Assembly (NCBI GenBank): GCA_965215185.1 | Contig: OZ244034.1 | Location: forward strand, 1,056,001 to 1,120,000 | Source: Acidimicrobiia bacterium | GTDB taxonomy: Bacteria; Actinomycetota; Acidimicrobiia; Spongiisociales; ZC4RG35 | Reading direction: 5' to 3' | Length of the DNA: 64,000 nt | In this document: positions 31,551-55,727 of the stretch, in pieces | How the letters are laid out: every line of letters begins with the position of its first letter | Position numbering within the stretch: the stretch's first letter is position 1 | The notes under the pieces: generated by a model | The model's input: the letters and a program-made list of their open reading frames with translations, nothing else | Told to the model about the DNA's origin: nothing | Databases searched by the model: none | Program-made: the position numbers and the translations under genes

Positions 31551-31623
31551 CGCCCTCGGCAGGATTCGAACCTGCGACCTACTGCTTAGGAGGCAGTCGC
31601 TCTATCCCCTGAGCTACAAGGGC
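31551..31623 (-). tRNA. tRNA-Arg(CCT)
   Basis: GCCCTTGTAGCTCAGGGGATAGAGCG...ACTGC-CTCCTAA-GCAGT...GGTTCGAATCC...CGAGGGCG. Confidence 0.96.
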
Positions 31624-31669
31624 GGTGGTGGCGGGAAACTCGGCGCGAAACTGGATGGGTTTAGGGTTT

Positions 31670-31675
31670 ATGGTA
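31670..31675 (-). promoter_or_regulatory. Outward-facing -10 box (TACCAT) in the element left end, upstream of tRNA-Arg
   Basis: TTATGGTAGTTGG is conserved in all four left-end copies (about 31668, 37113, 37427, 52852). Confidence 0.5.
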
Positions 31676-31789
31676 GTTGGGGTGGGGAGTGGGGGGTTGG
31701 TTGTTGTGCGGGTGAGGTTTGAAGTGGTGGGGGTGCTGGTTTTGGGTGTGTGGGCCGTGGTGGTCTAGGGCGGGGTGTTTTTTGGGGTG

Positions 31790-33457
31790 TTAGGCGGCTT
31801 TTTCGAGGGGTCCGGCTCGGGCGTTGGGGAAGTGGTTGCCGTGCCAGCGGGTCATGTCTTTGCCGGTGCGTGCGTGGTGGGCGACTAGGGCAGTGTTGGT
31901 CTGGTACAGGCTGTAGGCGATCCAGTTGAGTTTCAGGCTGTTTTTGTCTTGGGTGCGGAGCCGGTCGTAGTCCAGTTGTCTTTTGTAGGTCGCGAAGTGC
32001 GATTCGATGTCTTGTCGGATTCCATACAAGGGTTCGAAGAGGGGATCTGTTTCGGGGATGGGTCGCAGGGCGCGGGTTCGGCGGGTGTGTCGTTTGGCTT
32101 GGCGTTCTTGGGGGGTGCTGTTGTTTCGGATCCAGGTGATGGCTCCGATCATGTGTGGTGGCGCGACGGGGTGGTCGGGGATTTCCCATTGGGTGTAGAC
32201 GATGTGTTTGCGGGTTCGTTTCCCGGGTTTTTTGATTTGGGTGCGGGTTCGTCGGAGGGGCTGGTAGTAGGGGTGTCCGGTTCCGTCGAAGACGAGGATG
32301 GTGGGGGTGCCGTTGAGCGCGACGATGTTTTCTTCGAACTCGCCGTGTGCGGTTTTGAAGGTGCCGGGTCCCAGGTTGACTGCTGCGGTTTTGCCTTGGC
32401 TGGTGCGGGGTGTTTTGCTTATTGGCAGGATGCCTTGGTCCATGAGACGGTCACAGTCGGCGGAGCGCATGGCCATGTCGTAGGTGACGGCGCGTATTCC
32501 TTGGGTGAGGTGGGGAAAGTCTTTGCACATTTGGATGATCTTTTTGGTGAACAGGTTGGAGTCGGACTGTCCGGGTTGGTCGAGGATTTCCGCGAATAGA
32601 GGGATGCGTTCCTGCCGGTGGGGTCCGCGTACCACGGCGGCTACAACACAGTAGCAGTAGCCTTTTTCTTCGCCGGGCATGGGACGAACGTCGGGGTCGC
32701 AGCGATGCTTGGGTTTGTGGCCGGGCTTGCCGGGTGGTGGGTTCTTGAAGGCGGCGAGTGTAAAGGTGCCGTCACCGGCGACTATCTGGGTGGGATCGGG
32801 ACGGCTGATGGAACCGGTGGTGGGGTCTAGCAGGTCTATGAATCGGGCGGCTTCCAGGGAGGCGCCGGTGGCTGCTTTTTGCAAACGGTTGATGACCCAC
32901 GGATTCATGTAGGTTGTTCGAAAATAGTACTCGTTGTCACGGGTGGGCGGCTCTTCGGACAGTCTCCGGTTGGGATGGTCGGGCCACGCTTGTTCGGCGA
33001 CTTTTCTGAGCATGTTCCATTTTTTCTGTTCGGTGGGGAACTTCCAGTTGCGGTTGATGGTGTTCAGGTTCCTGTTCGTTGACCGTAACGAGCCGTAGAT
33101 GAAAACCGCCACTTGGAACAGGAGCCATTCGGCAGCGGTGTGCTTGCGGGGCCTGCCGCTTTTCCGGCGGTCTCCGAACACGGCCCGGATAGCGTTTTCT
33201 ATCAGTTCGCTTAGTTCCCATAGAAGCGAGTTGGACACTAGGGATGACAGGTTCTCGTCGTCTCCCCACCCGAGACCCTCCCCTTTGACGTTCCGTTCGC
33301 TGTTGCTTCCCGGAGTGTCGGACCTTTTCAATACCAGAGGTGTGTCTTCCCGTTCCTGGTAGGTGGGGTCTTCCCAAACCAAGTCGACCTGGTCTGCTCG
33401 TATCGGGTCCAGGTTGTCGTTGAACACCCGGGGACGGGCACCCTTTTTCTTACCCAC
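31790..33457 (-). CDS. Large DDE transposase (IS4-superfamily-like, about 555 aa)
   Basis: IVAGDGTF (D), AVTYDMAM (D), YGIRQDIESHFATYK = Y-2-R-3-E-6-K; GTG start at 33457 after GGAGG overlaps the upstream stop. Confidence 0.8.
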   Translation of the reverse strand: MGKKKGARPRVFNDNLDPIRADQVDLVWEDPTYQEREDTPLVLKRSDTPGSNSERNVKGEGLGWGDDENLSSLVSNSLLWELSELIENAIRAVFGDRRKSGRPRKHTAAEWLLFQVAVFIYGSLRSTNRNLNTINRNWKFPTEQKKWNMLRKVAEQAWPDHPNRRLSEEPPTRDNEYYFRTTYMNPWVINRLQKAATGASLEAARFIDLLDPTTGSISRPDPTQIVAGDGTFTLAAFKNPPPGKPGHKPKHRCDPDVRPMPGEEKGYCYCVVAAVVRGPHRQERIPLFAEILDQPGQSDSNLFTKKIIQMCKDFPHLTQGIRAVTYDMAMRSADCDRLMDQGILPISKTPRTSQGKTAAVNLGPGTFKTAHGEFEENIVALNGTPTILVFDGTGHPYYQPLRRTRTQIKKPGKRTRKHIVYTQWEIPDHPVAPPHMIGAITWIRNNSTPQERQAKRHTRRTRALRPIPETDPLFEPLYGIRQDIESHFATYKRQLDYDRLRTQDKNSLKLNWIAYSLYQTNTALVAHHARTGKDMTRWHGNHFPNARAGPLEKAA

Positions 33458-34371
33458 TCTGCCCCTCCATGAACACTTCAAGTCGTGCTTGCCCAACCTG
33501 TTTCCAGTCGTATCCCAATGCTTTGATCACGCTGGTCAGCGAGTCGGAACCGAGGAACCGGGCAGCGGCCTCCAACCCAAGACAGTCAAGAATCTGTTTG
33601 GCGGTATGGAGGCGAACTGACCGGGCCGAAACCTCCGGCCGTTCCCCTCAGCCCGGCGTCGCTGATCACTTCGCCCAGCCGGACAGTCACCGCGTGTCCT
33701 CTCCGATCCGTCTCGATCTGCTCGCTCACTGCTAACAGCCTCTTCTCGTCAATCAGCGGACGGATCTGCAGGAACTGGCGGATCGTTTGCTGTCCCCACT
33801 CGCACAAGGGGTTCCGCCGCCCGCCGATCCAAACTCGCCTGTTCGGAAGGTCAAGATCGCTCTTGCGGACCTTGGCTATCTCTGAGGATGTGCCCCCGGC
33901 AAACGCCAACGCAACGATCGTCGCCCGCCGGGAGAACAACTGTCCCCGGTCCGCGAAACCCCTCACCCGTTTGGCTTCTTCCTCGGTCAACGGTCGGGTG
34001 GTCAACGAATCGTGGCAACGAGGGATGCGCTCCCCGGCTAGGCGACGTCCATCGGCCACCAGCCCCAATGTTTCGGCGGCTTCGAACACCGCCATCGCCG
34101 CCCACTGACGGTTACGGGCCGTGGACACCGAAGGCCGAGCATGCTCGCCGCCCGGTGTTTGCCGAGCAGCCCAACACCATGACAACACCACCTCCGACGT
34201 GACGTCCCCCCATCGTCTTATCCCCGCTGTGCGCAGATAACGAAAGAGTCTTTCCGCTTCGCCTGTTAGCTTCGCTGCGGTGCGGACATTGGCACGGTAC
34301 CTTTCTGCTACCAGATCAATGACTCTGGTAATAGCGGGTTCAATGAGCAGAAGTACAGGGGTCACGGTCAT
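33450..34371 (-). CDS. Tyrosine-recombinase-fold protein with a degenerate active site; one frameshift near 33645
   Basis: RPLTEEE, ALAFAGGTSSEIAKVRKSDLDL; after a shift in the G-run it continues VSARSVRLHTA...LEAAARFLGSDSL...LGYDW to TAA at 33450-33452. Confidence 0.7.
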
Positions 34372-54177: not shown

Positions 54178-54342
54178 CTCTATGAATCCCGGTACGGTTC
54201 AGGGGGTTGGTTGTGGCGCGGGTGGGGTTTATGTGAGGTTTTGAGGGGCTGGATCTAGGGGTTTTGGAGTGTGGGCCGCGGTGATCCAGGGCTTTTGGGT
54301 GTTTGGCCCGCGGTGATCTGGGGCGGGGTGGTTTTGGGGTGT

Positions 54343-54815
54343 TCAGGCGACTTGTTCGAGGGGTCCGGCTCTGGTGTCGGGGAAGTGGCTGCCGAACCAG
54401 CGGCTGATGTCTTTCCCGGTTCGTTTATGGTGGGCGACTAGGGCGGTGTTGATTTGGAATAGGTTGTAGTTGAGTTGTCGCTTGTAGGTACTGAAGTGCG
54501 ATTCGATGTCTTGCCGGGGTCCGTACAGCGGTTTGAAGGAGGGGTCTGTTTCGGGTATGGGCCGCAAACCGCGGGTTCGGCGGGTGTGGCGTTTGGCTTG
54601 GCGTTCTTGGGGGGTGCTGTTGTTACGGATCCTGGTAGTGGCTCCGACCATGTGCGGTGGGACGAGAGGTTTGTCGGGTATTTGCCATAGGGTGTAGACG
54701 ATGCTTTTCGGGTTCGGGGTCCGGGTTTTTTGATTTGGGTACGGACCCGGCGAAGGGGCTGGTAGTGGGGGTGGCCGTCTCCGTCCCTAACGGCGATGGT
54801 GGGGGTGCCGTTGAG
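54343..54815 (-). pseudogene. Third copy of the DDE transposase, C-terminal remnant
   Basis: LNGTPTI...YQPLRRVRTQ; YGPRQDIESHFSTYKRQL; RAGPLEQVA; frameshift and deletion. Confidence 0.88.
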
Positions 54816-55211
54816 GAGTGCTGTTGTGACGTATGAGGGTGGTGGCACCAACGAGGTCAGTGGGGACGAGTGGTTTGTCGGGGATAGCCCAGGTGCCGTA
54901 CATCATGTTGCGATGGAGCACAACCGAAGCGAAGTTGAAAAACCATCTACATCAAGACCGGACCGAACGGCCAACAACTTGCTCCGGTGGAGGGCTGTCT
55001 GGTAACTGCCATAACCGGAAACAACCCCGGCCGTGGGGGGGGTCAGGAACCAAGCTGACCGAAGTCCGGTCCCAGTGAGTTGGCTGCCGTACCGCGGCAA
55101 GGACTGCGACCTTCGAATGCTGCCCGCGCATAGACCATACCAGTTCGGCGGAGGGTAGGGGTGGTCATCGGACGCTCACTCCAGGGATGATTGGTGTATA
55201 CTGATCGCTTT

Positions 55212-55406
55212 ATGAGACCTGATCCAAACATCGCCTTGATCCTCTCAATCTTTTTGGGTGGACTGGGTATTGATCGCATGTACGTTGGCCAAATCGGACT
55301 GGGTGTACTGAAGCTCCTCACCGCTGGGGGGCTGGGCATCTGGTGGCTGGTCGATTTGTTCCTGATCCGCGGGATAGCCCGGAAAGCCCAGCAAGAAGGC
55401 ACTTAG
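55212..55406 (+). CDS. TM2-domain small membrane protein (copy 2)
   Basis: Protein identical to 38962..39156; differences within the CDS are synonymous. Confidence 0.88.
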   Translation: MRPDPNIALILSIFLGGLGIDRMYVGQIGLGVLKLLTAGGLGIWWLVDLFLIRGIARKAQQEGT

Positions 55407-55727
55407 CCCCCTGAGCAAGGTTTAAGGTGCAGACCGTCCTTCCCTCGGGGGAGATGTCAATGCCCGACCTCGCCTAAGGGGCGTGGCTGTCCGGTAACCG
55501 CTATTTCCAAAGGCGGATAGCAGGGAAAATCGGGAAGGTTTGTGGGGGACTTTTCTGAACCAGTTGTGGGGTATGTTGGTAACTGTCCAGGTTCCGTCAT
55601 CGGTGGAGTCCGACTCCTGTGCATTAGTCGTTGCCCAGGCAGCCAGGTCCAACGGGTTCGATAACGAACTTAGGGCCGCATTGTCCGGCGCAGCGATCCC
55701 CTCGACATGGGTGGAGATCCGGCTCAG

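Follow-up and report, generated by a model that had tools for sequence, protein, structure and literature searches.

The window analysed here, a stretch of 64,000 nucleotides (nt) from contig OZ244034.1 of an Acidimicrobiia bacterium (assembly GCA_965215185.1, positions 1,056,001 to 1,120,000), contains a stack of related transposable element units that occupies about 24 kb, from position 31624 to approximately 55701, between the gene for tRNA-Arg(CCT) and hisIE (Table 1). The host genome (G000) comprises 3.12 Mb with 60.7% G+C, and ARAGORN detects 49 tRNAs in it, of which only the copy at 31550-31623 is a tRNA-Arg(CCT). At the other end of the stack, hisIE is followed by hisF and hisH in a run starting at 55958; in relatives, the distance between hisIE and the tRNA is about 145 bp (genome G016) or 470 bp (G001). 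The units are called here E1, E2 and E3 from the tRNA outwards. They represent a new, widespread family of site-specific transposons, characterized by an unusual partner protein and a probable promoter take-over. Self-comparison of the stack reveals repeats that are 76-96% identical across 55-1043 bp, far beyond chance. A preliminary description, made from the sequence alone, had reported left ends and right-end tips within this region, and both self-comparison and the reading of the junctions locate them as it had described: the left ends start right after an 8-mer at 31624, 37383 and 52819 (31621, 37380 and 52816 in the former numbering), and the right-end tips (...GTTTCGCGCCAGCGCC) stop at 37374, 39619, 50009 (a 33-bp fragment) and 52811. 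Within the stack, the left ends are 83-92% identical and the transposases from 65% to 96%. The transposase is intact in E1, reduced to its C-terminal half in E2 (37552-38414, 96-97% identical to that of E1) and represented by the most diverged remnants in E3, as had also been noticed; the likeness of E3 to E2 ends at 55701.

The limits of the units are defined by their junctions. In the window these read gagct-ACAAGGGC-GGTGG..., ...CAGCGCC-ACAAGGGC-GGTGG... and ...CAGCGCC-CAAGGGC-GGGGTT..., and the 16-bp terminal inverted repeats (left GGTGGTGGCGCGAAAC, right GGCGCTGGCGCGAAAC) match at 14 of 16 positions in an ungapped alignment. The repeats are gap-free only when the whole of ACAAGGGC is placed outside the element, so that the target-site duplication amounts to 8 bp (7 bp in three junctions) instead of the 4-5 bp initially proposed. 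A parse as a 5-bp duplication plus GGC was dropped, as it would force a 3-nt gap into the inverted repeats. The same ACAAGGGC joins right ends to left ends in G011, G002, G005 and G007. In the four-unit array of G092, every junction reads ...CGCGCCATCCCC / GCCCTCGT / GGGGATGGCGCG..., with a perfect inverted repeat (GGGGATGGCGCG on both sides) flush against the 8-mer, and in G122 the inverted repeats are also flush against an 8-mer, GCCCCCGT, that matches the tRNA of its own host. Across the family, the 8-mer differs with the host tRNA (GCCCTTGT, GCCCTCGT, GCCCCCGT and GGGCCTCT).

The length of the duplication can be read at a single 5-kb copy inserted in tRNA-Lys(TTT) (locus L103, genome G123). 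On its far side, a -10-like TAGACT is followed by 13 nt, GGGCCTCT and the right tip; on its near side, GGGCCTCT-AGCTCATCGG (AGCTCA, tRNA-Lys) comes after the left tip. The bases bounding one repeat copy differ, on either side, from those bounding the other, which fixes the length of the repeat at exactly 8 bp. Junctions of 7 bases, in which nucleotide 8 is absent, were found three times (52812-52818 in the window, L105 and L016). Because the first 8 bases are duplicated, the tRNA stays whole and the element need not supply GGC; the left end, to which the rebuilding of tRNA nucleotides 1-3 had been attributed, is more likely to supply a promoter. Two further loci, L052 (G018) and L090 (G085), show a 6-nt partial copy of the tRNA 5' end (GCCCGT and GCCCCT) between the left tip and +1, which may be the footprint of an earlier event.

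The same geometry is conserved beyond the window. A total of 43 loci with a transposase match were collected from metagenome and genome scans, from 61 relatives and from 401 genomes across the phylum Actinomycetota, with matches in 13 of the relatives and in 23 of the phylum-wide genomes (E <=1e-20). Peptide-pattern scans yielded two loci in genome contigs and six in metagenome contigs, whole-genome profile searches being far more productive. Thirty-one loci were informative, meaning that they retain the transposase C-terminus and at least 300 bp downstream, while the other 12 (fragments, contig edges) were set aside. In 24 of the 31, a tRNA on the same strand has its 5' end 140-260 bp beyond the transposase match, usually 163-192 bp beyond the stop codon. 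The tRNAs involved are Arg-CCT (13 loci), Phe-GAA (4), Ala-TGC (3), Lys-TTT (2), Arg-CCG (1) and Thr-GGT (1, resting on the unpublished genome G148). Three more loci (L011, L016 and L087) run into a junction of left end, 8- or 7-mer and right end, and the expected tRNA placement also appears in 4 of the 12 set-aside fragments. In G000, the left-end signature is present at 1 of the 49 tRNAs. Common to all targets is (T)AGCTCA at nucleotides 8-14, which means that insertion always occurs immediately upstream of this box.

The transposase of the window has no match in NCBIfam, and its match to Pfam DDE_Tnp_1 is below threshold (21.4 bits versus a cut-off of 23). Across 40 members, curated models give a weak Pfam match in 2 and a weak match to the IS1182 model of NCBIfam in 5. 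Nevertheless, D229, D327 and E485, which make up the DDE triad, as well as R481 and K492, are invariant in the 40-member alignment. Around the catalytic glutamate the window protein reads YGIRQDIESHFATYK, in which Y-G-I-R-Q-D-I-E-...-K corresponds to Y(2)R(3)E(6)K, which we take to be the signature (Y-x2-R-x3-E-x6-K) of the IS4 superfamily. The AlphaFold model (predicted local distance difference test, pLDDT, 87.7) retrieves Tn5 transposase with Foldseek in all of its best five PDB matches, with E values of 2e-6 to 1e-5, a probability of 1.00 and template modelling (TM) scores of just 0.29-0.37. On this signature and the predicted fold, the transposase is an unclassified branch of the IS4/Tn5 superfamily, unclassified because Pfam and NCBIfam barely match its members, yet Tn5-like in both respects, and the DDE protein would be the catalyst of transposition. 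Relatives are abundant: a word-based search of 5.8 billion proteins returned 12, and a profile search of 1.84 billion cluster representatives returned 897 at E <=0.001 and 201 at E <=1e-30, whereas tblastn of a plasmid collection gave no match to the transposase. In a maximum-likelihood tree of 23 transposases, sequences group by target (support of 100/100 for Arg, 100/99 for Ala and 100/100 for Phe), with target switches among Lys, Arg and Thr within one clade.

Although the element had been described as carrying a single transposition gene, a second one accompanies the transposase in every locus with room for it. This accessory gene comprises about 305-345 codons and immediately precedes the transposase; it was found at 10 loci in one survey and at 15 of 15 in another (one of them broken). 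In the window the two genes overlap, the accessory frame running to 33453 and the probable GTG start of the transposase lying at 33457, with GTGGGTAA between them. The accessory profile matches archaeal XerA (E 2.2e-4), and in both domains its model (pLDDT 86.9) resembles XerA, lambda Int, Tn1549 Int and Cre, with a Foldseek probability of 1.00. However, no alignment column holds tyrosine in at least 50% of 23 diverse members, so that no conserved nucleophile is apparent, and the canonical position is occupied by A, L, F, M, V or I; another alignment of the protein likewise contains no invariant tyrosine. At the position of the first catalytic arginine (G-x-R-x-x-E), the clade of the window has an invariant threonine and the Lys/Phe/Ala/Thr clade an arginine. 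As the fold is kept but the tyrosine is gone, the accessory protein is read as a DNA-binding partner that would no longer recombine. Pairwise identities, compared to see whether its divergence tracks the target better than that of the transposase, show simply a faster evolution of the accessory protein in every pair. A complex prediction with the accessory and transposase alignments scored 0.27 (mark, 0.32), which is no evidence either way. The window copy is split, with tblastn matching residues 1-246 in one frame and 247-306 in another; in other public runs, base 33632 is missing in all covering contigs of X1, X3 and X4 and in half the depth of X7, which indicates that the frameshift is private to the strain or an assembly error.

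The left end follows a plan that is common to all subfamilies, with two direct repeats 11-12 bp apart that end 4-7 nt before the tRNA +1, and a conserved -10-like TANNNT hexamer (TACCAT, TACCCT, TACACT...) further upstream, some 50-70 nt from the tRNA. A TANNNT starting between -75 and -40 is present in 24 of 27 left ends, compared to a mean of 5.1 and a maximum of 12 in 1000 shuffles. In the genus of the window, where the tRNA was found in 16 genomes, the hexamer is present at -75 to -40 in 13 and at -25 to -10 in none, and direct repeats with a 12-nt spacing are found in 13. In the outgroup, a proximal TANNNT at -21 to -14, without such repeats, is present in 9 of 14 loci (one of them from the unpublished genome G039). 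This pattern suggests that the left end probably supplies an outward promoter that replaces the displaced native one. Left ends also occur in genomes without a transposase match (G006, G016 and G001, and G165 from another family); in G016 the whole stretch of about 145 bp between hisIE and the tRNA is a shortened left end. The objection to insertion that the preliminary description had foreseen, a left end in relatives that lack the element, thus applies in part, but these left ends are best read as retained remnants, given that the left end is repeated in every array unit and that outgroups have a different, proximal -10 box. Persistence of the left end where the rest is gone would be expected if it had become the only promoter of the tRNA.

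These remnants may be regarded from the opposite side, namely that the left end is no more than the original upstream DNA of the tRNA in this lineage, and that tandem duplication with unequal recombination built the array from a region that happened to bear a transposase. A left-end-like sequence does lie upstream of the tRNA in 16 of 16 genus genomes, including those without a transposase match, and the short stretch of G016 would fit such an ancestral state. Yet the units of the stack differ in content and in age, as judged by the spread of their left-end and transposase identities, and in other families tRNAs of five further kinds have the same architecture next to them, the end repeats varying with the transposase lineage. 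Moreover, L103 presents a native-type -10 box and an 8-nt stub beyond a single copy, and the outgroups have their proximal -10 box and no direct repeats. Therefore, we consider a native origin of the left end very improbable.

Stacks from other genomes follow the order seen in the window. In G000, G011 and G092, it is the unit proximal to the tRNA that has the full-length transposase, and the outer units are fragments, or lack the genes while their ends stay good. In the G092 stack (L098, in tRNA orientation), two units at 565-5814 and 5823-8272 have well-kept ends and neither a transposase nor an accessory gene, which makes them candidates for non-autonomous elements moved in trans. An assembly artefact, raised beforehand as a possible source of the repeats, was rejected, as junctions of the same type recur in contigs from other public runs: in a contig of run X4, a 39619-type tip is joined via ACAAGGGC to an E1-type left end. 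In X3, X4 and X7 there are also contigs that leave out 5.8-8.1 kb beginning at the left end, which indicates that the make-up of the array varies between populations. The portrayal of an unclassified DDE transposon that enters the 5' end of tRNA-Arg(CCT) in one orientation, and stacks with its intact copy beside the tRNA, is thus borne out and extends to the whole family.

We consider it probable that these elements form a family of cargo-carrying DDE transposons of the cut-and-paste type, 2-11.5 kb long, that would insert in a single orientation at base 1 of one given tRNA gene. The two strands would be cut with a stagger, ahead of nucleotide 1 on one side and past nucleotide 8 (in some cases 7) on the other, and tRNA nucleotides 1-8 would thereby be duplicated, so that the tRNA downstream of the element would remain complete and an 8-nt stub would be left with the native promoter. 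The tRNA would in this way be severed from its own promoter, and an outward -10-type promoter in the left end would take over. New copies would enter at the tRNA-proximal 8-mer and shift older, decaying copies outward, generating a dated stack. The co-transcribed accessory protein would act as a DNA-binding partner that most likely selects the tRNA gene or organises the ends. A bolder version, which we regard as conceivable and offer only tentatively, is that a recombinase which lost its catalytic tyrosine but retained its DNA recognition now serves a Tn5-like transposase as target selector, and that the element, by taking over the promoter, makes its left end indispensable and each targeted tRNA gene a permanent landing pad. 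If true, the host could shed cargo but never the left end, and the landing pad would go on collecting defence and transport genes.

Several observations weigh against this scheme. Among the 31 informative loci, one (L002) is arranged head-to-head across the 8-mer and three others (two of them in G151, the third in G039) are more than 1.5 kb away from any tRNA; moreover, many loci come from related genomes that share insertions by descent, so that the counts overstate the number of independent events. G019 has a fragment of the transposase at the 3' side of the tRNA and on the opposite strand, even though a left end occupies its usual position beside that tRNA. Three solo right-end remnants of 70-110 bp (contig C1 of the genome, positions 1314044, 1322549 and 2000301), which stop exactly at the tip and have neither a left end nor a transposase, lie 4.4-15.6 kb from tRNAs. 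A filled and an empty site within one species were not found as a pair. In the search for the empty site of L103, the distal flank was compared with 41 genomes of that family and only an upstream gene matched; a tRNA was present in 0 of the 10 loci then scanned, and hence synteny around L103 is not kept. The promoter function is read from sequence, and a scan with an E. coli-type sigma-70 consensus gave no promoter in 31540-31800. No transposition event was observed, so that transposition itself is deduced from its products. Finally, the junction of right end, 8 bp and left end resembles a recombinase core site, the partner protein has the corresponding fold, and a second clade retains the first catalytic arginine.

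This last point leads to the one serious alternative, site-specific recombination, in which a circle with an attP attachment site (right end-8 bp-left end) would be integrated by strand exchange with the tRNA 5' end inside the 8-bp core, carried out by the accessory protein or by a host Xer-type enzyme that it recruits. An inverted repeat around an 8-bp spacer is the layout of a tyrosine-recombinase core site, the accessory gene is always linked to the transposase and encodes the full two-domain fold of known recombinases, with its profile match to XerA, and the X4 contig in which a tip is joined through ACAAGGGC to a left end could stem equally from a circle or from a tandem array. Nonetheless, tyrosine is missing from the accessory alignment, and in the clade of the window threonine has replaced the first catalytic arginine in every member. 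In addition, 7- and 8-bp junctions coexist, which is exactly what a stagger varying by one base would give and a recombinase core would not. The invariance of the DDE and YREK residues across 40 transposases would be hard to explain were that protein idle, and the solo right ends terminate exactly at the tip. Thus, recombination appears unlikely as the source of the stacks, and transposition by the DDE protein is the reading retained below.

The remaining contents of the stack are listed in Table 1. E1 holds a nucleotidyltransferase gene and, about 100 bp before its right end, an extra left-end-like copy with a 12-bp internal duplication; E1 may be a fusion with an older miniature element. Beyond E2 extends a mosaic in which the right tips at 39619 and 50009, initially described as lying beside unrelated DNA, adjoin IS3-related debris and are not clean ectopic insertions: the sequence just past the first (39620-39680) matches DNA adjoining an IS3 OrfA-like frame in a relative, and that just inside the second (49899-49975) copies the DNA directly before the IS3 OrfA gene of E3. 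The pair of IS110-family genes is flanked by inverted repeats (39829-39974 and 42797-42945) that are themselves inside the stack, and the older cargo includes a 167-residue protein with a topoisomerase-type C4 zinc ribbon (43026-43529). The MMPL segment at 47065-48875 is 99.5% identical to positions 18190-20000 of the stack of G011 (L059), another species of the genus, whereas the genes flanking it are 65-90% identical, a difference that points to recent horizontal transfer. In that stack, the 11.3-kb unit beside the tRNA has cargo (L059 2600-10845) that includes a GmrSD-type nuclease, a PP2C-type phosphatase and part of a type IIG restriction-methylase. In this respect, the stacks behave as small islands of defence genes.

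Table 1. Coordinates of the tRNA target, the stacked units and their contents in the window
Feature	Position	Strand	Remarks
tRNA-Arg(CCT), target gene	31550-31623	minus	ARAGORN; 5' end at 31623
8-bp repeat, copy 1, ACAAGGGC	31616-31623		still within tRNA; complement of tRNA nucleotides 1-8
Unit E1	31624-37374	minus	5751 bp; adjoins tRNA; both ends located; only full-length transposase frame
E1 left end	31624-31651		16-bp terminal inverted repeat GGTGGTGGCGGGAAAC; second direct copy CGGCGCGAAAC 12 bp further
-10-like hexamer TACCAT facing tRNA	31670-31675	minus	starts 52 nt upstream of tRNA +1; proposed outward promoter
DDE transposase	31790-33457	minus	555 residues from GTG at 33457; 568-codon open frame continues to 33496
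Accessory gene, tyrosine-recombinase fold	33453-34371	minus	one frameshift at about 33632-33634; stop overlaps transposase start
E1 cargo nucleotidyltransferase	35657-36778	plus	N-terminal domain resembling MntA/HalB; Pfam, NCBIfam, PADLOC
Extra left-end-like copy, E3 type, inside E1	37068-37156		no 8-mer before it
E1 right end	37262-37374		terminal inverted repeat 37359-37374 and several subterminal GAAACC-type repeats
8-bp repeat, copy 2, ACAAGGGC	37375-37382		E1/E2 boundary
Unit E2	37383-39619	minus	2237 bp; internal deletion; left end, transposase C-terminal half 37552-38414, right end 39507-39619
Mosaic of older cargo and insertion sequences	39620-52698		
IS3-related stretches in mosaic	39620-39680 and 49899-49975		
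Two IS110-family transposase genes in mosaic	40026-41252 and 41489-42703		about 76% identical at the DNA level
Other mosaic cargo: ion channel			
Other mosaic cargo: MMPL transporter	47191-49680		
Other mosaic cargo: CitMHS transporter			
Right-tip fragment	49977-50009		33 bp
Right end of older unit	52699-52811		left part lost or disrupted
7-bp repeat CAAGGGC	52812-52818		base matching tRNA nucleotide 8 missing
Unit E3	52819-55701	minus	oldest; left end 52819-52878; no right end
IS3-family remnant inserted in E3	52879 to about 54180		end is an estimate
E3 transposase remnants	about 54293-54815		65-84% identical at the protein level
hisIE	55958-56605	minus	native neighbour at the far side of the stack; Pfam PRA-CH and PRA-PH

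A literature search found no bacterial element of this kind described, leaving room for a catalogued but unpublished insertion sequence name. The 897 cluster representatives define a sizeable transposase family that had been left unannotated, and its organization suggests a compact, two-protein system of protein-guided site-specific insertion, whose target would have been switched among at least six tRNA species. The basis of this target choice is testable, and the system is possibly re-targetable. In addition, the stacks would be dated records of successive insertions in which genes for defence and transport are kept, and unusual sequences upstream of tRNA genes in Actinomycetota would find their explanation in retained left ends.

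Several known systems share part of these features. Like Tn5 and other IS4-like elements, this family has a DDE triad with the Y(2)R(3)E(6)K signature, a Tn5-like predicted fold, short terminal inverted repeats and a duplication of similar size, that of Tn5 being 9 bp. Unlike them, it displays strict specificity of site and orientation, has a partner gene and several end-proximal repeats, and carries cargo of up to about 10 kb. Tn7-like elements employ TnsC, TniQ and the rve-type DDE transposase TnsB; their insertions lie past the 3' end of the tRNA and duplicate 5 bp. Among the 14 open reading frames in or next to the stack, no Pfam match to a TnsB-type rve transposase, TnsC or TniQ/TnsD was found, the sole rve match in those scans being the inserted IS3 remnant; also unlike Tn7-like elements, this family inserts at nucleotide +1, on the promoter side. 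A published account describes Tn7-like elements as cargo-carrying DDE transposons that home to a fixed site beside an intact tRNA gene (PMC11837452). The present family resembles them in the fixed site beside a tRNA that is not destroyed, and a dedicated DNA-binding selector is proposed here as well. Should the selector interpretation be true, the accessory protein would steer the transposase to +1 much as TniQ or disabled Cas proteins steer Tn7-like elements.

In eukaryotes, Dada elements are DDE transposons specific for tRNA and small nuclear RNA genes, with duplications of 6-7 bp and lineages specialised by tRNA; several of them insert at tRNA nucleotides 8-13 (TAGCTC), inside multicopy genes that are disrupted as a result (PMC8869645). 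By contrast, the present family is bacterial, lands just upstream of the same conserved AGCTCA box, and leaves a single-copy tRNA intact. Among bacterial DDE elements, the conjugative TnGBS elements insert upstream of many sigma-A promoters, which they do not replace. Both families are position-specific relative to transcription signals, but their transposases belong to different families and one particular gene is the target here.

Integrase islands, prophages and actinomycete integrative elements rely on a tyrosine or serine recombinase that is active, have their crossover site in the anticodon, the T-loop or the 3' part of the tRNA, and provide a copy of the displaced 3' segment. As in integrase islands, a tRNA gene serves here as a conserved landing site at which copies accrete in tandem. 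Unlike in those islands, the recombinase homologue lacks its tyrosine, the element lies 5' of the gene, and the repeat comprises only tRNA nucleotides 1-8. The family would thus represent an added route for bacterial mobile DNA into tRNA genes, from the 5' side, by transposition, with an 8-bp duplication and with the promoter taken over.

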